DNA of 64,000 nt. Source: Escherichia phage FFH2. The first letter of the stretch is position 1; each line of letters begins with the position of its first letter. Location: sequence record KJ190158. One strand, written 5' to 3'. A program made the position numbers and the translations under genes. The notes below the pieces were generated by a model. The model was not told the DNA's origin. It made no database searches and saw only the letters and a list, made by a program, of their open reading frames with translations. Below, piece after piece: positions 2,238 to 55,538 of the stretch.

Positions 2238-3056
2238 TTGAGCAAGAAAGAGTCTAACGACAAATACTACACAAACCCTGAGTATGCAGAATATCTTGTT
2301 GGTAGAGTAAAAGACAAGTATGGGAATTGTGCATACGTTGAGCCTTCTGCTGGAAGGGGTTCTTTTTCAAAACTATTTTCAGAGATACTGTCGTACGATC
2401 TAGTACCAGATCCTGAATTTGAAGGACCAACACCGTGCATTCAGGCAAACTTCTTGGAGGTGCATCCCAAGGCAGATGTCTTCATAGGTAACCCACCATT
2501 TGGCAAGAATTCATCTTTAGCTTGCAAATTCTTTAACCATTGTGCATCGTTGCTAGATCTTGGCGGGGCTATAGCCTTCATCTTGCCACGGACATTTGAA
2601 AAAATATTTTTTGCAAACAAACTGGACATGTCTATGCACCTTGTCTACAGCGAAAGGTGCCCTAAGAACTCGTTTTTACTTAATGGCAAACCTTATGACG
2701 TGCCATGTGTTTTCCAAATTTGGGAGAAAAAGGCGTGCAATAGGGATCCTGTAGAGATTGGAGAGAATAGGTTATTTTCTTTTAGCACACCAGATGACTA
2801 CGACTTCTGTGTAAGACGTGTTGGGTATAATGCTGGAAAAGTATTGGGTGATGATGACCCAAAATCTAAAGAATCTACATATTTCATAAAATCTTTAGTT
2901 GACGGTGTTGACAGAGTGTTTGCTGAATGCTATTCTTCTTTTCAAGAAGAAGCAGGTAAGACTGCTGGAATGAAGAGTATAGGCAAGAAAGAACTACAAT
3001 ACATTTTGGAGACCCGGTATGATCAAAAGTATAGACTTGACCAAAGAACTTACTGA
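2238..3056 (+). CDS. DNA N6-adenine methyltransferase (motif I before motif IV, NPPF type)
   Basis: VEPSAGRGSF (SAM-binding motif I) followed by FIGNPPFG (motif IV). The start is placed at TTG 2238, with GGAGG 5 nt upstream, because the longer ORF start at 2208 lies inside the terminator hairpin. Confidence 0.75.
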   Translation: MSKKESNDKYYTNPEYAEYLVGRVKDKYGNCAYVEPSAGRGSFSKLFSEILSYDLVPDPEFEGPTPCIQANFLEVHPKADVFIGNPPFGKNSSLACKFFNHCASLLDLGGAIAFILPRTFEKIFFANKLDMSMHLVYSERCPKNSFLLNGKPYDVPCVFQIWEKKACNRDPVEIGENRLFSFSTPDDYDFCVRRVGYNAGKVLGDDDPKSKESTYFIKSLVDGVDRVFAECYSSFQEEAGKTAGMKSIGKKELQYILETRYDQKYRLDQRTY

Positions 3057-3477
3057 TGCAAAAGCTTTTGGTGAGACAGCAGTACAAAGGGGGCAGGCGA
3101 TGGGACTGGCACTACCTTTCGTCTTAAAAGAGCACTTTACAGATTTTCAACTTATCAAGGGTGATAAGGGAATGCTTATCCTGGAGCATAAGTTGAGTAA
3201 GAAACGCTATAAAGTTGTTTTTAATTCTAAAGCTCCAACAAAACTGGGATTCAGAACTTACAATCTTAACCCATCCTACACTAAGGGTGTTGGAAGGGTA
3301 GAACAACAGCATTTCAGTGCCAGAGCTTCTTTAGCCCCTTTGATGCTAAATTTCTCAGGGGTGGCTTTAGGATACCTTGATAAGAAAAGAGTTCTTCATG
3401 TCCGTTTCACAGACTTTGTAACGCTCTTAGCTAACAACGAGGTTGATGAAAAGGGACGTGTAAAAACAAACTTCTAA
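3019..3477 (+). CDS. hypothetical protein
   Basis: 152-aa ORF with GGAGA upstream of the ATG. It overlaps the methyltransferase 3' end. No recognisable motif. Confidence 0.55.
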   Translation: MIKSIDLTKELTDAKAFGETAVQRGQAMGLALPFVLKEHFTDFQLIKGDKGMLILEHKLSKKRYKVVFNSKAPTKLGFRTYNLNPSYTKGVGRVEQQHFSARASLAPLMLNFSGVALGYLDKKRVLHVRFTDFVTLLANNEVDEKGRVKTNF

Positions 3478-3504
3478 TAACGCATAGTATGATTGGAGAC
3501 CGAA

Positions 3505-3696
3505 ATGACACTAAAGTTAACAATTCCAGACAGCTTTTCAGAAAACTTTATCCCAGAAATGATGAGTAAGATGCGATCATTGCTTGATCAGATTGAGGAG
3601 GCTGTTTGGGAAGACGATGCTGTAGTGGCTAACGAGCTGGTAGATAAGTGTAAAAGTATTATTGATGCAGTTGAAGAATACCACGGAGGTTTTTGA
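3505..3696 (+). CDS. hypothetical acidic protein (63 aa)
   Basis: ATG 3505 is preceded by GGAGAC. The stop overlaps the next start (TGATG). Confidence 0.55.
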   Translation: MTLKLTIPDSFSENFIPEMMSKMRSLLDQIEEAVWEDDAVVANELVDKCKSIIDAVEEYHGGF

Positions 3697-10326: not shown

Positions 10327-10605
10327 ATGAGCTGTGAAAAATCTTTTTTCTTTATTATTTACGGTAAAGATAACTGCCCACATTGTGTAAGAGCAAAAGA
10401 ATTTGCAGTCAGTAAGGGTCTGCCTTTTGTATATAAGACACTTGGCGAGGGTTACACAAAAGAAGAGCTTATTGAGAAGTGCAGTCCAATCGTACCCAGA
10501 ACGTTGCCGCAGATCTTCTTAGAAAGTAATCTTGAAAGTGTCCATATAGGCGGTGCCGACGATTTCATCTCTTTTGTTAAAAATGGTTTTGGAGAGAAAA
10601 AGTGA
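10327..10605 (+). CDS. Glutaredoxin/NrdC-like redoxin
   Basis: YGKDNCPHCVRAKEF has a CPHC active site. TLPQIF...IGG is the glutaredoxin-fold cis-Pro and GG region. The gene sits between nrdB and nrdD. Confidence 0.8.
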   Translation: MSCEKSFFFIIYGKDNCPHCVRAKEFAVSKGLPFVYKTLGEGYTKEELIEKCSPIVPRTLPQIFLESNLESVHIGGADDFISFVKNGFGEKK

Positions 10606-11462
10606 AAGTTGTAAAACGGGACGGTAGAGAAGAGTTCTATAACGGAATTAAGGTGATCAAGGCGGCAGAGTCCGCCTTACTTGAGTCTGGACATACTGAA
10701 GAAGAAGCTTACCGGATCGCCTGCGCGGTTAATGAAGTTGTTGCTAACAATCTACCAACCGACCAGTGCACGATCTCTGTAAAAAATATCCATATCCTTG
10801 TTGAAGACGCTCTTATGGATATGGGTTTAAAATGTGCAGCCAGAGAATACATCCAGTATAGGCAGACAAGAGATAATAACAGAGAGGCAGGTGGAAAACT
10901 GCTTGCAGATATTAGTGGCTTCTTGGATCGCACTTGTGATGAATTTACAAAAGAAAACGCAAATAAGCCTACCAATCATGTACACACTCATCGTGACCTG
11001 CTTGCAGGCATCCTTAGCAAACACCTTGCATCAACACAGATCCTGACAGACCGTGTCTCAGAAGAGCACAATAAAGGCTTCATCCATGTGCATGATCTTG
11101 ACTACTTGATCAGTCCGTTAACAAACTGTTGTTTGGTAAATTATCCAGATATGTTGGAAAACGGATTCAACATTGGTAACGCCCATGTCAGTAAGCCGAA
11201 GTCAATAGGGGTTGCAACAACAATCCTTAGCCAAATCTCTAGTGCAGTAGCTAGTGCTCAATATGGAGGTCAGACTATGAGCCATATTGATCATTATCTG
11301 GCACAGTATGCTGAAGCGACCTATGAGAAGAACCTTAAATTTTGCCAGGAACATTGGTTGCCAGATGCTGAGACTGTTGCAATGCAAATGACAGATAAAG
11401 ACGTATTTGACAGCATGCAGACTTTGCTCTATCAAATCAATACGTTAACCTCTGTCAACGGT
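10602..11462 (+). CDS. nrdD: Anaerobic ribonucleoside-triphosphate reductase, exon 1
   Basis: ATP cone (KVVKRDGREEFYN) and colinearity with E. coli NrdD up to ...YQINTLTSVNG (E. coli ...YEVNTLHTANG). The frame hits a stop immediately after the proposed 5' splice site. Confidence 0.9.
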
Positions 11463-12260
11463 TAACAAACTGGCCGTTGTAAAACTCTCCTAACCTCATA
11501 AGAGGGGTCGGTAAATCCGGCTAACGGGGAACGCTAAGGCGAAAGCTATGCCAATCCCGTGACTAGTTCTTACAGGAGTTGGAACGGTTGTAACGACTAA
11601 CGAAAGGCAGAGATGCTTGACAAACATTTCTGAACCAAGTAGTGTAGAGGTTAGTTGAAATACTAACTTCGAAATGGAGAGGCTCTATGAAAAAGATCAT
11701 TCTTAATGGTGAAGAATCAAACTATGTGATTGATGAGGTTGGAAACGTATACGGAAAACGTGGAATGCTACACCCAATATTGTGGGGAGGTTATGGAAAA
11801 GGTAACAAGCATGTTAAACGCCGTTATATGTACTCTTTCAACCACAAAGGTAAAAAGATTCGAATCCAAACCTCAAGGATTGTTGCCTTGTATTGTTTGC
11901 CAGATGTCCCAGAAGACCCTGAAAACTGGGAAGTGAATCATAAAGACGGCAATACATTGAATGATCATCCGTCTAACCTAGAGTGGGTTTTGCCGGAAGA
12001 TAATAAGAGACATGCTTTCCGAACAGGGCTTTGCCCAGGCAAGTGCTATAGGAAAGTGCAGGCATACAAAGGGAAAACCTTGGTGGGTGAATATCCTTCA
12101 CTCTATGCCTGTGCAAAAGCCTTAAATTTGAACGTAGGTAACGTTCATAGGGCTATCGAAGGAAATGCCGAAGGTAAGCATCTCACAATAAAGGGTTATT
12201 ATCTTATTGAAGTAGAGTAAGAGATAGTCTGGCCCTGTGGAAACACAGGGGAGGAGACAG
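11463..12260 (+). mobile_element. Group I intron in nrdD carrying an HNH homing-endonuclease ORF
   Basis: The exon end CAACGGU can pair with the intron GCCGUUG (11475-11481) to form P1 with a U.G wobble at the splice site. The intron ends in G (12260). P7 candidates are GACUA (about 11565) and UAGUC (12225-12229). Joining 11462 to 12261 gives NTLTSVNG|QTPFITLSLGLDTS, matching E. coli NTLHTANGQTPFVTFGFGLGTS without a gap. Confidence 0.85.
11687..12220 (+). CDS. HNH homing endonuclease (intron-encoded)
   Basis: VNHKDGNTLNDHPSNLEWV is an HNH motif. A C-terminal NUMOD1-like HTH is present (YPSLYACAKALNLNVGNVHRAI). The ORF lies entirely inside the nrdD intron. Confidence 0.85.
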   Translation: MKKIILNGEESNYVIDEVGNVYGKRGMLHPILWGGYGKGNKHVKRRYMYSFNHKGKKIRIQTSRIVALYCLPDVPEDPENWEVNHKDGNTLNDHPSNLEWVLPEDNKRHAFRTGLCPGKCYRKVQAYKGKTLVGEYPSLYACAKALNLNVGNVHRAIEGNAEGKHLTIKGYYLIEVE

Positions 12261-13523
12261 CAGACTCCATTCATCACATTAAGTTTAGGACTGGATACCT
12301 CGGTCTTTGGTAGAATGATTACCAAAAATTACTTGAAAGTCCACAAAATGGGTCTTGGTGAAGAACGTATCACACCTGTGTTCCCTAAAGTGCTGTTCTT
12401 CCTAGAAGAGGGTGTCAACATGAACCCTGGAGATCCTAACTATGATTTGAAAAGATTGGCTCTGGAATGCTCTGCAGAGCGGATTTATCCTGACTTTGTT
12501 TCTGTTCCACTAAATCGTAAAGTGACAGGCTCGACAGATGGTAAAGTAACGAGCATGGGTTGCCGGAGTTTTCTTAGCAAATACAATGACTTGGAAACAG
12601 GCGAGGAGAAATACCTTGGCAGATTTAACTTAGGCGTTGTTAGCCTTAACCTGCCAATGATTGCGGCAAAAGCTAAAACGGAAGGTGTTGATTTCTTTGC
12701 AGTTCTTGACGAATACTTGGATCTTGCATACGAGGCTCACCTTGTAAGGGTTAACCGTCTAAAAGGAACAAAGGCAGGGCAGAACCCTATCATGTGGTGT
12801 GAAGGCGCTCTTGCTCGCCTGGATCCTGAAGAGAGTATTGATAAACTCTTCTATGACGGGTACGCTTCCATCAGTATTGGGTATATTGGTGTGTATGAAA
12901 CCTGTCAGATTTTGGGCAGAGAGGGTGACAAGGCTTTAGCTCTTGGAATCCTTCAGCACATGAAAGATGCTTGTGAGCGATATAAGAAGGAAAGTGGACT
13001 AGCATTTAGCTTGTACGGCACCCCTTCTGAGAGTTTATGCTATAAAGCTGCAACCTGTCTGGATCGTGAATATCCAGAAGTGTTGAAGCACGAGCATGAA
13101 TACCTCACCAACAGTTTCCATCAGCCAGTATGGATCAATAGTTCACCTTTTGATAAGTGGAAGTATGAAGAAGGTTTTGCTATGATCTCTTCTGGTGGCA
13201 ACATTGGATATATAGAGACACCTAACCTGAAAAACAACCTGGATGCTTTAGAGGCTCTTGTTGACTTCGGGTATAAACACATTATGTATTTTGGTATTAA
13301 CCAACCTGTGGATAAATGTCTCAAGTGTGGTTTCTCTGGTGAGTTCAGTGCAACAGCTAAAGGCTTTGTATGCCCAGAGTGTGGAAACCATGAAGAGGGA
13401 ACGATCAGTGTAATTCGACGTGTGTCCGGATACCTTTCCAGTCCTAACTCCCGTCCTTACAATAAAGGTAAGCAAGCGGAAGTTATCGAGCGAGTTAAGC
13501 ACTATGGAAGTTGTAGTTGCTGA
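12261..13523 (+). CDS. nrdD: Anaerobic ribonucleoside-triphosphate reductase, exon 2
   Basis: Colinear with the E. coli NrdD C-terminal half. It has a Zn ribbon (CLKCGFSGEF...CPECGN) and the glycyl-radical motif RRVSGYLS. Confidence 0.9.
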   Translation, partial: QTPFITLSLGLDTSVFGRMITKNYLKVHKMGLGEERITPVFPKVLFFLEEGVNMNPGDPNYDLKRLALECSAERIYPDFVSVPLNRKVTGSTDGKVTSMGCRSFLSKYNDLETGEEKYLGRFNLGVVSLNLPMIAAKAKTEGVDFFAVLDEYLDLAYEAHLVRVNRLKGTKAGQNPIMWCEGALARLDPEESIDKLFYDGYASISIGYIGVYETCQILGREGDKALALGILQHMKDACERYKKESGLAFSLYGTPSESLCYKAATCLDREYPEVLKHEHEYLTNSFHQPVWINSSPFDKWKYEEGFAMISSGGNIGYIETPNLKNNLDALEALVDFGYKHIMYFGINQPVDKCLKCGFSGEFSATAKGFVCPECGNHEEGTISVIRRVSGYLSSPNSRPYNKGKQAEVIERVKHYGSCSC

Positions 13524-13526
13524 TAC

Positions 13527-13556
13527 TTGACAAAAGCTACAAGGATGTGGCATATT
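13527..13556 (+). promoter_or_regulatory. sigma70-like promoter
   Basis: TTGACA-18 nt-CATATT immediately after the nrdD stop. Confidence 0.45.
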
Positions 13557-13586
13557 ATTGACACACAGTGAGCTAGGAGGTACAGT

Positions 13587-13703
13587 ATGTCTACAGGTAT
13601 TTATAAAATTTGCAAGTGTGGTTGTCGTTGCAATCTTCGTTGGTGCAAGGCACTGGACGATTTTATTTGGCATTGCCCTAAATGTGATGCGGAGTATCTA
13701 TGA
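13587..13703 (+). CDS. Cys-rich mini-protein (38 aa), zinc-ribbon-like
   Basis: MSTGIYKICKCGCRCNLRWCKALDDFIWHCPKCDAEYL. It has a strong SD (TAGGAGG) 7 nt upstream and is below the ORF-track cutoff. Its stop overlaps the nrdG start (ATGA). Confidence 0.5.
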   Translation: MSTGIYKICKCGCRCNLRWCKALDDFIWHCPKCDAEYL

Positions 13704-51186: not shown

Positions 51187-51540
51187 TTAGTGACAATCAC
51201 CCCAATTACGACCACACAAGTATTCACCTGTGATCTGGAACGGGACTCCCATCATTTTAGAAGCTTGCCAGAAGCAATGTACCACCATTTCGCCCACAGG
51301 ACTCCAGATAAGTTCAAGCTTTCCGTCATCGTTCAAGATAGGATCGTACACCGTGTTTCCGTCTCTGTCAACCACTTCGTTTCCGTCCTCATCCTTGCGT
51401 GCCTTTTTGTACTTATGACCGTCGAACACATGAAGTTTGGCCTCCTGCTCTGCCTTAAATGCTTCCAGTTCTTCGATTGTGTCGAAGGTGTACACAGTCT
51501 TATACTTCGGTGTGTCAGGGACTTGAAGCTGATATTCATC
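51187..51540 (-). CDS. DNA polymerase (family A, T7 gp5-like), exon 2
   Basis: It begins DEYQLQV..., completing motif C (YYH|DE). It ends ...GRNWGDCH, like the T7 polymerase C terminus ...GPNWAICH. Confidence 0.85.
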   Translation of the reverse strand, partial: DEYQLQVPDTPKYKTVYTFDTIEELEAFKAEQEAKLHVFDGHKYKKARKDEDGNEVVDRDGNTVYDPILNDDGKLELIWSPVGEMVVHCFWQASKMMGVPFQITGEYLCGRNWGDCH

Positions 51541-52383
51541 CATCTGTTCAGGTAGGTCGTTAAGCTACCCCGCACCATTACGTGCATAGCCATACAGTTT
51601 CCTGTATGGATCGGACTACCTCACTGCCTTGGTAACAAGGCACCTCCCATTTCGACCGCACTTGCTGGCCTACTCTACTCGCTTCTTCACACCAACCTAT
51701 GTTGGAGCTATGCTTTCGATAGTCTCTGAACGTTACTACCAGGTGTAGTTTTTAGAGATATGTTTCCACTGTCTTCTTTGCTTTATAGCCCTGACGGTCT
51801 CATAAGGATATCCAAGATCCCTAATCTCGCATTGTCGTAGACCACTCTGCAACAGTTCGCAAATCTCTATTACCTCATCTTCTGTCAGCACAGCGTTAGC
51901 ATTATACTCACCAACTGGCCTTACTCTGAGGTCATTATCATAGGCGTGCTTGATATTTCCACCAGGGGTGGTCCATTCTAGGTTCCAGTATGCATTGTTG
52001 TACTTATTCCCATCCTTATGGTTCACCCATGTGAGTCTTTCAGGATCTGGGTTTGATACAAAGCATTCAGCAACCAGGTGGTGGACACCTTTTGTGCACT
52101 GCTTCCCCTCGATTAGCATGGTTACGCAAAGGTAACCTCTACCATTATCAAAACAAAACATTGTTGTATGATCACGTTTCGATAAAGGTATTGTTCCATC
52201 ATCAAACACGGTATACCCGTGATAATCAGCTGTTCTAGCCATTTTAACTACACCCCTTTAGTCTTCGCTGCGGATTAGCATATTGAGCTTTTACCATACT
52301 CAGGTGTAAAAGTCAACTTAGCTTCCCCGTCAATTAAAGAGGTTATTCGACATAGATTACTCTATGAAGCCACAATGTTATTT
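51541..52383 (-). mobile_element. Group I intron in the DNA polymerase gene carrying an HNH ORF
   Basis: Minus strand: exon 1 ends ...UACCAU, which can pair with the intron UGUGG (U.G at the splice site). The intron ends ...ACAGAUG. P7 candidates are GACUA (5' part) and UAGUC (3' part). About 135 nt and 195 nt of GC-rich noncoding flanks surround the HNH ORF. Splicing restores the HDE of pol A motif C. Confidence 0.8.
51736..52242 (-). CDS. HNH homing endonuclease (intron-encoded)
   Basis: WVNHKDGNKYNNAYWNLEWTT is an HNH motif. The C terminus has an HTH-like region (LRQCEIRDLGYPYETVRAIKQRR). Confidence 0.85.
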   Translation of the reverse strand: MARTADYHGYTVFDDGTIPLSKRDHTTMFCFDNGRGYLCVTMLIEGKQCTKGVHHLVAECFVSNPDPERLTWVNHKDGNKYNNAYWNLEWTTPGGNIKHAYDNDLRVRPVGEYNANAVLTEDEVIEICELLQSGLRQCEIRDLGYPYETVRAIKQRRQWKHISKNYTW

Positions 52384-54807
52384 ATGGTAATAAATAATAC
52401 GACGAACACCTTCATCGTACCACCCACGCTTCACCATTTGGTGGTGCATGAGTATCCCAACTAAGTCACACAACGATGCACCACCATTTTGTTGGTATGC
52501 ATTAAGTAAAGAGTGTTTAGATCGGGTCCAGATGGCATGACCATCAAAAGAGTAGATAAACTTCTTACCCGTTGCTTCCCAGAATTTCTCCAGATCCTCT
52601 TTACGGCCCTTAAGACCAGGGTTGGCATCCCAAAGCGCATCGATTACCCTTTGTCCCAACTCTGGAGAGATGTCCAGCATATCTGCAACTTTATCTTTTT
52701 GTGCCCCGTACATAACCCCATACGTGATAGGTTTACCGTCGTTACGGGACACCTCTCTGCCTGCTACTTTTGTATATGCCTCAGCATTGTTTTGGTGTGC
52801 GTCTCCGTTACTTACAACATCATAATACAAGCCGTTGTCGAACTCAAAGGCACCCCAAGCCCCGATAAGCTGCTCTAAGTTGGACCCGTCAATACCGATC
52901 TCAAAGTATCCAGGAGGAACACCCCACAGACTACGCATCTCTTTACCCATAACCACTTTAGGAGATGGTTTAGGCATGTTTGCACAAATACTGTGTTTCT
53001 GTCTGGAAGTGTTTGTTAATCCAGAGCTTTTAGCAGGAAGCTTATGGTCAATCTTCAAACGTGGGTGATTAAGAAGACCAGTGTCAACCTTATCCTCCTT
53101 GATTGGATCAAGTACCGATCTGCGGTTTCGCAATGATAACCATAAGACGATATCTTTAGCCATCTCTCCGTTCAATTTTTCAAGATTCGGACACAGGTGT
53201 CCAAACGTATCTTTCAGTTGCGGAGAAGTAATAAGTGCCCTAGCTTTTCTACGTATTTTCCCGAATACTTCCTTTTTAATCCTTTCGGAGTTAGGAAAGC
53301 TTCGGAACTTGTGCACTGTTGTCTGAAACTTAGCATCAGTTTTGTTCCAGAAGTTGATAATTAGGTCACAATACTCTGACTCTAAAAGCTCGTCCATGTA
53401 TGCATATACTCGTGCATCAACATCTGCATCAGGTAGAGCTTTCTTCTTGCTGTCTTTAGTTACATCCTTAGTTCTCCACATTGTCGGAAGCCAACCAGCA
53501 CTGATCAGGTATCGCTTAATGTCGTCCTGATTGCTGATTTTCATAGGTATCTTGCAGTCAGGCATTCGCTTCTGCTGCAGATCGCTTATTGCCTGATCCA
53601 TCAGCTCTTTAGGCAAAGGTTGTGGTGTGGAGGTGCCCTTAATATAGCCTCTCAAGAAATCAGCCATCTTATCGTGGTCTTTGCAGCCCATCTCTTCACA
53701 CCATTTTATCCCCATTTTACTGACATCTCCTGTGGAGGTAAATGCTCGCTTAGGTGGGGCTTTGAACTCTAAAGCGCTCATGTCTACAGGATAGCCAAGC
53801 TTATCTTTTAACCATTTCCAACCATTATTGGAGATTGTCCCATCTTGGTTAAACGGCTTTTCAGGGAACTTGGGCCGCTGAGACATTGACAGCTCTTTTA
53901 AAGGTAGTTGTGGTTCAACACGATCAGCTATTTCTTTCATCCACGCATCGCAACGGTCACGTAAAGCAATAGCCCCGTCTATGTCGAAATACACACCCTG
54001 ACGGGCCTGCAGCTCCATCAGGAAGTGCTGCAGCATGCCTCGACGTAGTGCGTTCTTCCAGGTGATCTTCTTGAACCCTTTCGGCTTCTCTTTGGCTGGA
54101 TCGTACATAAAGTTCTGCATGTCAGATTTGCCGTAGAATACACCTTTTGATTCCGCTACCAGCTCTTTCCAGAGCAGCTCCTGGATGATAACGTCCTCGA
54201 ATACACGATCCACATACTTCCACAACGGAAGATCGCGCCAGTCATCAATTTGAACTTTCTGGTTACCAAGGGCGTAGCCCCATGCCATAAGGCCGTGAGG
54301 ACCAACAGGCTGCATTTTCTTAGTAACCGGGTTGAATACAGAGTCCGGACAACCTTTTGGTAAAGGGCGATCAGGCCACAAGATTCGGCTCATCGCCAAC
54401 GTATCAAACAGGTTAACCTGGTGGTCGTTGATAGTCCCCATACATTTAGGATCACGGAACATATCAAAATGAATACCGGATAATCTCTCCATCAGCATAA
54501 AGTCATAACTGTAGCAGTTATGGCAGTTCAAAGCTGTTGGTGACCAGTCGGAATTGCCTGTAAGCCAACCCTCCAACTCCGAAAAATCTGCTATGCGAAC
54601 TTCAAAATCCTTATAAAGAGTTTTCTTTGCCAGAATAAAGTTCTTAGCCTTCTCTATATCCTCCTCGGAGTAGTGTGTGCGGTCATTTAGAGGAAGGAAC
54701 AGCATAAAACGGTTCTTATTCAGCTCTTTAAACAGGCCGCAATGATAATAAAGATCTGGGTCTTCCAAAAGCCCTGAGGCCTCCAGATCGAAGCACCAAT
54801 TACTCAT
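52384..54807 (-). CDS. DNA polymerase (family A, T7 gp5-like), exon 1
   Basis: N-terminal 3'-5' exonuclease motif WCFDLEASGL (DxE). Polymerase motifs follow (DGSNLEQL region, KPITYGVMYG motif B-like). As a plain ORF it stops one codon after ...IIYYH, inside motif C. Confidence 0.9.
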
Positions 54808-55538
54808 ACTGTCTCCTCCTGTGTCTTCTCAGCATTCTTTCTTGCAGCTATTGCATCGTCCCTGTTCTTGAAATACCCAAGGCATTTCCTTTTACCATCT
54901 ACATGAATTCTGGCTACCCATCTTTCATGGGTTTTATCCCAATTCACCCCTGAGCAACCGCTGGTGTTATTATACTGCACGGCTCTTCCACTCTTGTGCG
55001 AAAAACCATTATCTTCGAAGAACTTTCTTGCCCACTCTGCCTCTTCAAAAGTTCTGTACTGGCCTAGCCAGACCCTTTCACCTACAGAGTCTGTGCCTTG
55101 AGCTACCCATGCCCCTCTTTCTTCAGAATAGTGCACCCCGACCCTGCCAGATTTGTTGTTGCTACGAGGTATCTTGCAACTTTTCTTTTTGTTATCTGTA
55201 GGTTCGAGTAGTTGCAAATTATGAATACTGTTGTCAGCCACACCACCTGTTTCCCTTATCTCCTTGATGTGGTCAACCTCATACCCTTCCGGTACAGGAC
55301 CGTTAAACATTTCCCAGATTATAACGTGGGCACCTTTAGTGCAATGCTTTCCTAGACTAACCACAGGCCTGCCATCAGCATCTTGCCCCTTGTCAGCTCT
55401 GGAGCCTGCTGAAGTTTTAACATATCCTACACCGCTGCCTGCCAGAATGTCTATCTTCCAAAAAAGATTTTGACCGTCATACTCCAATATTTCTGACCAC
55501 AAGTGATTAGCTACACAGTGATCTCTGAACTCGTTCAT
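54804..55538 (-). CDS. free-standing HNH endonuclease with two AP2 DNA-binding domains
   Basis: EVDHIKEI...NSIHNLQLLEPTDNKKKS is an HNH motif. Two AP2-like repeats follow (SGRVGVHYSEERGAWVAQ...LGQYRTFEEAEWARK and SGCSGVNWDKTHERWVARI...LGYFKNRDDAIAARK). Confidence 0.8.
   Translation of the reverse strand: MNEFRDHCVANHLWSEILEYDGQNLFWKIDILAGSGVGYVKTSAGSRADKGQDADGRPVVSLGKHCTKGAHVIIWEMFNGPVPEGYEVDHIKEIRETGGVADNSIHNLQLLEPTDNKKKSCKIPRSNNKSGRVGVHYSEERGAWVAQGTDSVGERVWLGQYRTFEEAEWARKFFEDNGFSHKSGRAVQYNNTSGCSGVNWDKTHERWVARIHVDGKRKCLGYFKNRDDAIAARKNAEKTQEETV

Follow-up and report, generated by a model that had tools for sequence, protein, structure and literature searches.

Escherichia phage FFH2 (sequence record KJ190158) carries the ribonucleotide reductase gene nrdD as two open reading frames (ORFs), located at 10602-11465 and 12237-13523 of the 64,000-nucleotide (nt) stretch analyzed here, referred to as the window, and the question raised by this locus is what separates the two halves and whether a single NrdD protein could still be made from them. 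The first-pass annotation of this sequence had proposed that nrdD is split by a group I intron carrying an HNH homing-endonuclease ORF. Direct observations support this reading, namely an exact junction, core pairings with covariation, an ORF of recognizable identity under selective constraint, and a patchy occurrence of the insert on shared exon backgrounds, and so do gene joins annotated in sister genomes; the insert is very probably a mobile phage IA2-type group I intron in Vequintavirus nrdD. The window region is 95-98% identical to more than 100 Vequintavirus genomes (rV5/FV3-like E. coli myophages), and the gene order at the locus, nrdB, glutaredoxin, nrdD, and nrdG, is the same in rV5. 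All coordinates are those of the window, and features lie on its plus strand unless otherwise indicated.

The two ORFs are indeed the halves of NrdD and divide the Pfam NRDD profile between them. Exon 1 (10602-11462, 287 codons), whose GTG start overlaps the glutaredoxin stop, encodes an ATP-cone at residues 1-91 and the N-terminal part of NrdD, corresponding to NRDD profile positions 1-154, while exon 2 (12261-13523, 420 codons plus stop), read from 12261, supplies positions 156-562 and the glycyl-radical domain (Pfam Gly_radical). The 798-nt insert at 11463-12260 separates them. Joining 11462 to 12261 yields the protein ...NTLTSVNG/QTPFITLSLGLDTS (QTPFITLSLG...), the slash marking the junction, with ...GTCAACGGT/CAGACTCC... 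as the nucleotides predicted across the ligated exons. Excision of the insert in silico leaves an ORF of 2124 nt and 707 codons, equal in length to the uninterrupted nrdD (2124 nt) of rV5, O157 typing phage 14, and ECP32, and the join itself is as stated earlier. Colinearity of the exons was borne out against the Pfam NRDD profile, T4 NrdD, and intron-less relatives, and a 600-nt query spanning the spliced junction gave a single ungapped match to intron-less genomes, at up to 98.7% identity. Comparison with intron-less relatives, suggested in the first-pass annotation as a check, thus places the junction exactly: their insertion site reads GGG/CAA, and the insertion point lies between codons Gly287 and Gln288 (phase 0). 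The annotated start of nrdD varies among records, with rV5 and FV3 starting at the GTG (window 10602) and the BASEL-collection and several other records 213 nt downstream (window 10602-10815); the upstream GTG is favored because the ATP-cone match covers residues 1-91.

The first three bases of the insert form an in-frame UAA (11463-11465), and further stops follow in the nrdD frame. The "start" of the second ORF, at 12237, falls within the insert and is therefore an artifact of ORF calling. An intein or other protein-level insertion, or a group II intron, could also be considered, inteins being common in phage ribonucleotide reductase genes. Interruption of the reading frame by stops refutes the protein-level insertion, a Pfam search found no intein or reverse-transcriptase domains, and the RNA is matched by the group I model and not by group II; this explanation is scarcely conceivable.

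Three states occur at this position among the relatives of FFH2: 26 records have the intron with its ORF, 14 have a 257-nt ORF-less intron at the identical site, and the rest have no intron. In the ORF-containing form, both boundaries obey the group I rules. The exon strand of P1, CAACGGU (11456-11462), ends in U11462, the last exon base and 5' splice site, and pairs with the internal guide sequence GCCGUUG, the P1 3' strand (11473-11479), through the U11462·G11473 wobble. The 7-base-pair (bp) P1 with a U·G at the splice site, as proposed earlier, is therefore present, with seven of seven pairs kept, the U·G pair being retained in all seven variants and the first pair changing from C-G to A-U in ORF-less alleles. 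As the first-pass annotation had also stated, the intron (11463-12260) ends in G (G12260, the 3' splice site), a base that the ORF-less intron shares. A weak P10 may form between CUG (11470-11472) and the first bases of exon 2, CAG. Position -1 is T in every intron-bearing allele and G in all intron-less alleles examined (rV5, typing phage 14, ECP32, and SYGMH1). A splice register shifted by one base (exon-end G, intron-end A), mimicking the GGG of the intron-less alleles, was rejected, as it breaks both boundary rules. The intron measures 798 nt in the window and in FV3 and 797 nt in most other carriers, which have one G fewer after P9 (12248-12252, in the unpaired 3' tail).

A core model of 54 pairs was built by hand by comparing the ORF-containing, ORF-less, and T4 sunY introns, and it contains the P3-P8 and P4-P6 domains and the P3/P7 pseudoknot of a group I core. 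The P3 5' strand CUCUCC (11485-11490) pairs with the 3' strand GGAGAG (11676-11681), with a C-G pair becoming G-C in ORF-less alleles. Between P3 and J3/4 stand two extra hairpins (11494-11522), hairpin A (CCUC with GAGG, 11494-11505) and hairpin B (GGUCGG with CCGGCU, 11506-11522), in which all pairs are kept and one is compensatory. P4 (ACGGGG, 11524-11529, with UCCCGU, 11555-11560) encloses P5/P5a with a GAAA loop (11524-11560 in all), and it is followed by the P6 hairpin (11566-11585), whose outer three pairs were counted, one of them compensatory, and whose inner pairs were judged by eye only. GACUA (11595-11599) and UAGUC (12225-12229, preceded by the J8/7 sequence AAGAGA), listed previously as P7 candidates, are placed as the two strands of P7 by the Rfam alignments and are invariant. 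Between the P7 5' strand and the P3 3' strand lie P7.1 (CAGAGAUG with CAUUUCUG, 11608-11632), positioned as in sunY and the ORF-less intron, and P7.2 (GAGGUUAGU with ACUAACUUC, then GAAAU, 11647-11670). Both were read from the sequence, and their order is that of T4 sunY, an IA2-like arrangement. P8 joins GCUCUAU (11682-11688) to GUAGAGU (12212-12218), with four of six counted pairs compensatory relative to the ORF-less intron, and the P9 hairpin CCCUGU-GGAAAC-ACAGGG (12233-12250; strands 12233-12238 and 12245-12250) shows one compensatory pair and two one-sided changes.

When scored on seven distinct variants, as reduced constructs lacking both the P8 loop and the P7.1/P7.2 region, the model gave standard pairs in 378 of 378 cells (54 pairs in seven variants), and no helix was broken. 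Nine pairs change on both sides, one each in P1, P3, hairpin B, P6, and P9 and four in P8, while controls slid by 1-3 columns were 32-49% paired and contained 0-3 pairs with a two-sided change. Additionally, the ORF-less intron folds better than all 200 of its shuffles (z = -3.7). Two candidates were discarded during model building. The P3 5' strand placed by Rfam in the ORF-less intron (CGCUGGC, next to J3/4) leaves two non-pairs and was replaced by CUCUGC, located 34 nt upstream, whose pairing is complete and shows covariation; a MAFFT alignment of the ORF-containing and ORF-less introns misaligned the 3' ends, and the reduced constructs were used instead.

Several points weigh against the group I interpretation, the limited scope of this count among them. 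The core model was derived from the same sequences that were used to score it. P4, P5, and P7 are invariant and therefore contribute no covariation evidence, and independent covariation events are few because essentially two sequence types with minor variants were compared. P10 amounts to only 2-3 bp. A scan for sigma-70-like promoters inside the intron upstream of the ORF gave no candidate. Finally, a search of the whole window with the Rfam group I model RF00028 at its gathering score (50 bits) returned no match. With a relaxed threshold, RF00028 scored 27.7 bits in the window (E 7e-5 locally), with only the J8/7-P7'-P9 part correctly placed because the model cannot span the ORF; its placement of the model's 5' half inside the HNH ORF (11963 onward) was rejected as an artifact of a 530-nt insertion. 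The 257-nt ORF-less intron of phage AlexBoehm scored 29.8 bits, aligned end to end over model positions 1-253, again below 50. The Rfam scan recommended in the first-pass annotation thus aligned parts of the core, but its scores (27.7-29.8 bits) stayed short of 50 bits. The low scores are likely caused by the 530-nt ORF in P8 and by the two extra hairpins, which displace the P3 5' strand.

Such scores would also suit a gene that is simply in pieces, in which insertion of the HNH gene split nrdD without splicing and the active enzyme is an assembly of two polypeptides, 1-287 and a C-terminal part, as reported for Aeh1 nrdA/mobE. Non-spliced splits of phage ribonucleotide reductase genes have been described (PMC3653736; PMC7344957), and a GTG-start ORF at 12237 reads into exon 2. 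This ORF, however, begins inside P9, and a complete group I core with compensatory changes surrounds the endonuclease ORF. Moreover, the boundaries follow the U/G rule and restore the frame to the base, and the 257-nt version, with the frame still split, occupies exactly the same site without an endonuclease gene. Assembly from unspliced pieces is accordingly very unlikely, and a group I intron is the better account of the split.

The ORF within the intron (11687-12220), previously described as filling most of it, encodes a 177-amino-acid (aa) I-HmuI-like HNH homing endonuclease, accounts for 534 of the 798 nt, and fills the P8 loop. It scores 29.3 bits against Pfam HNH_3 (cut-off 24.8) and 1.5e-26 against PHROG 59, and among solved structures it matches only I-HmuI (1U3E), over residues 8-160, nearly its full length (E 2.7e-4), with the catalytic H/N/N residues of the HNH (beta-beta-alpha-metal) motif aligned. 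The protein is found in 26 Vequintavirus records at an identity of at least 98.9%; its next relatives, HNH genes of unrelated phages, reach no more than about 40% identity over comparable lengths (50% for one 64-aa fragment). Among carriers, 26 of 30 variable sites in the ORF are third codon positions, with 3-14 synonymous versus 0-2 non-synonymous codon differences, and this predominance of synonymous changes shows that purifying selection maintains the gene.

The ORF is interlocked with the ribozyme at both ends. Its ribosome-binding GGAG lies within the P3 3' strand, which doubles as the Shine-Dalgarno sequence, and ends 7 nt before the AUG (11687-11689). The first two bases of this AUG belong to the P8 5' strand, and the last base of the P8 3' strand is the first base of the UAA stop. 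Because the ribosome-binding site lies in P3 and the AUG in P8, folding of the ribozyme and translation of the ORF should exclude each other, by analogy with the sequestration described for T4 intron ORFs (PMC2988022).

The distribution of the intron among relatives argues for mobility. Carriers share 99-100% identity in the ribozyme parts and 97-99% in the ORF region, but only 89-97% in the flanking exons, even when no more than the 100 nt next to the junction are considered. Three exon haplotypes are shared between phages with and without the intron (EI-SP-GF/ECP32, FV3/SYGMH1, and WalterGehring/typing phage 14). In the 200 nt under comparison, every pair shows T versus G at -1 and G versus A at +3, and the only further difference is one at +6 in EI-SP-GF/ECP32. 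The -1 T is required for the U·G pair, and the +3 G provides the third pair of the weak P10 (CAG with CUG at 11470-72); the intron-less, rV5-type target sequence reads ...GTCAACGGG/CAAACTCC... (GTCAACGGG/CAAACTCCATTC). Differences confined to the edge of the insertion site are the footprint that would be expected of homing with very short co-conversion, unlike that of a precise intron deletion.

The same comparison bears on whether the intron still functions. A decayed, non-splicing intron in an nrdD pseudogene would fit the sub-threshold Rfam score, the extra G in the 3' tail of the window relative to most relatives, and the dispensability of nrdD and nrdG in some relatives (Certrevirus comparison). 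Against this, the nrdD exons of the window and EI-SP-GF, both carriers, differ by 126 synonymous versus 12 non-synonymous codons, and such strong purifying selection on both exons argues against a dead gene. In addition, the ribozyme parts are conserved at 99-100% across carriers with an exon divergence of up to 10%, all helices of the model are intact, and the FV3 intron has the same 798-nt length. Decay is thus, if anything, slightly less probable than a gene in unspliced pieces, and an intact intron remains the preferred interpretation.

Existing annotations are consistent with this interpretation. In the GenBank records of the BASEL collection (WalterGehring and AlexBoehm), nrdD is annotated as a join of two pieces that flank a "putative homing endonuclease" gene, whereas most other GenBank records list it as separate fragments. 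Among the papers searched, none describes this intron. The rV5 paper reports only terminase introns, and rV5 nrdD itself is without one. Two features of the records themselves were also observed: LR699804.1 ("rV5_ev146") has the ORF-containing nrdD intron, which the rV5 reference NC_011041 lacks, a difference that may stem from acquisition during laboratory evolution or from recombination, and about 19-23 "Campylobacter phage" records (MG0656xx, host C. jejuni) share 94-99% identity with these E. coli Vequintavirus sequences and look mislabelled or contaminated.

From these features, a course of events may be inferred for splicing, catalysis, the timing of ORF expression, and the site and specificity of cleavage. 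Transcription of nrdD would run through the intron, and on unspliced RNA ribosomes would stop at the UAA formed by its first three bases. The intron would fold into P1-P9, together with P7.1, P7.2, and the two extra hairpins between P3 and P4, and free guanosine would attack after U11462, held by the guide GCCGUUG in the U·G pair. G12260 would then enter the G-site of P7, and ligation of the exons (GGU/CAG) would produce the 707-aa NrdD. The 177-aa HNH endonuclease would be translated from the P8 loop, with the P3 3' strand as ribosome-binding site and the AUG in P8. In a mixed infection, it may nick or cut intron-less nrdD (GGG/CAA) near the insertion site, and repair off the intron-bearing genome would copy the intron and at most a few flanking bases (-1 T, +3 G).

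The relationship between the two intron forms is less simple than the shared site would imply. Their identity is about 86% over the initial 139 nt and the final 43 nt, and between these ends P7.1, P7.2, P3', and P8 are unalignable (window 11602-12218 versus 2503-2576 of locus L002). Because the whole P7.1-P8 block is unalignable, the ORF-less form is not a simple deletion of the ORF; on a tentative reading, this would mean that modules have been exchanged between introns.

The two-hairpin module between P3 and J3/4 recurs in many unrelated introns on viral contigs, where a recurrent G·U / G-C / U·G stack adjoining UAA-P4 closes it, and it is not represented in the Rfam model. The motif UAACGGGGAA...AAUCCCGUG (P4/P5 region) is common to at least 120 viral-contig loci. 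Of 33 non-redundant ORF-less introns on viral contigs with this core (loci L011-L129), at least 19 have two hairpins separating P4 from a P3 5' strand 31-43 nt upstream. A strict DNA pattern for close relatives of the intron matched only one locus in the viral contigs. In distant relatives, P3 pairing came to 6.06 bp with the own strand versus 4.88 bp with another, a modest difference, so this test was used as supporting evidence only. A tentative suggestion, more doubtful than probable by a wide measure, is that the intron belongs to a large, mostly phage-borne IA2-like subclass that carries this module; the exchange of modules between introns is put forward with the same reserve. If such a subclass is undescribed, it would explain why introns of this kind escape Rfam.

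Other introns and endonuclease genes lie nearby. Some relatives (phita32, 241Ecol014PP, SYGMH1, JEP1, and others) have a second group I intron in nrdD, located some 300 nt further downstream (window-equivalent about 12560-12570), about 760 nt long, and equipped with another HNH ORF, of 169 aa. This intron (L003 3459-4228, L004 about 2919-3688, and L007) scores 35.3 bits with Rfam on its 3' part and is absent from the window; because of it, Vequintavirus nrdD occurs in at least six intron configurations. Between nrdD and nrdG, WalterGehring has a 993-nt "putative homing endonuclease" gene (L001 4459-5451) and rV5 has three small ORFs, while in the window the gap is only 176 nt (13524-13699) and contains two sigma-70-like promoter matches (13527-13586).

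Elsewhere in the window, a second group I intron of about 843 nt occupies the family-A DNA polymerase gene at 51541-52383 on the minus strand, its boundaries being taken from match spans and the U/G rule. RF00028 scores 26.8 bits at 52164-52393 (minus strand), and the intron holds a 168-aa HNH-like ORF (51736-52242, minus strand). Polymerase exon 1 ends ...YYH at U52384, the intron ends in G51541, and exon 2 begins DEYQLQVPDT... (ORF 51187-51543); relatives carry the full intron (31 records), an ORF-less form, or none. Directly upstream of the polymerase gene and overlapping its start lies a free-standing gene for a 244-aa endonuclease with HNH and AP2 domains in Pfam (54804-55538, minus strand).

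The consequences of these findings for biology at large are small, since phage nucleotide-metabolism genes have been known from T4 onward to harbor mobile group I introns with homing endonucleases; the nrdD intron is a new, or at most database-annotated, example of a very well-known type of element. Only two points are mildly unusual, namely the two-hairpin module between P3 and P4 and the difference of the two forms over the whole P7.1-P8 block. In practical terms, the exact splice junction allows nrdD to be annotated as a joined coding sequence in place of the two or three "genes" and a hypothetical protein listed in most records, and the intron illustrates that real phage introns go undetected by the general Rfam group I model. 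Furthermore, the intron-less, ORF-less, and ORF-containing alleles of Vequintavirus, present on near-identical backgrounds, offer a ready system for studying homing, co-conversion, and endonuclease specificity.

Among known systems, I-HmuI is intron-encoded in a phage gene of replication or nucleotide metabolism and is a nicking enzyme. It comes from the DNA-polymerase intron of Bacillus phage SPO1 (1U3E) and has 174 aa, close to the 177 aa of the FFH2 protein; the similarity is remote (E 2.7e-4), and host gene and target differ. The T4/RB3 nrdB intron with I-TevIII is likewise a group I intron with an HNH-family endonuclease in a phage ribonucleotide reductase gene (PMC2988022), although it resides in nrdB and not nrdD, and the two are set side by side by description only. 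In Pectobacterium phage CB7 (Certrevirus, Vequintavirinae), which belongs to the same subfamily, the genes for terminase and DNA polymerase and the nrdB gene contain HNH-carrying introns that splice in vivo, as demonstrated by reverse-transcription polymerase chain reaction (PMC7344957); the elements are of the same kind, and nrdD is not reported as split there. Aeromonas phage Aeh1 nrdA, split by the HNH gene mobE, is also a ribonucleotide reductase gene cut in two, but this occurs without ribozyme or splicing (PMC3653736), whereas the window has a complete intron core.

The nearest comparison is the T4 nrdD (sunY) intron, which the first-pass annotation had named as an analog. The analogy stands in that both introns interrupt the same host gene within the same conserved NrdD block, have an IA2-type core with P7.1 and P7.2, and are mobile elements with their own endonuclease (PMC2988022). 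T4 sunY also begins with UAAC, an immediate in-frame stop, its UCUGCC is homologous to the P3 5' strand CUCUCC of the window, and the two are very similar in J6/7-P7 (AACGACUA), GAAAC-P3', and J8/7-P7' (AGAUAGUC). The analogy does not extend to the site, since T4 has its intron 32 nt upstream and inside a Tyr codon (phase 1), in contrast to phase 0 after Gly287 in the window, nor to the endonuclease family, I-TevII being a GIY-YIG enzyme (PMC2988022) and that of the window an HNH enzyme, nor to the position of the ORF, which in T4 follows P9 in the 3' part of the intron and in the window lies in the P8 loop. The T4 intron is also longer (1033 versus 798 nt), and its P3 lies directly at J3/4 without the two hairpins found in the window. 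The T4 and FFH2 introns are therefore analogous occupants of one conserved NrdD block, not the same intron.

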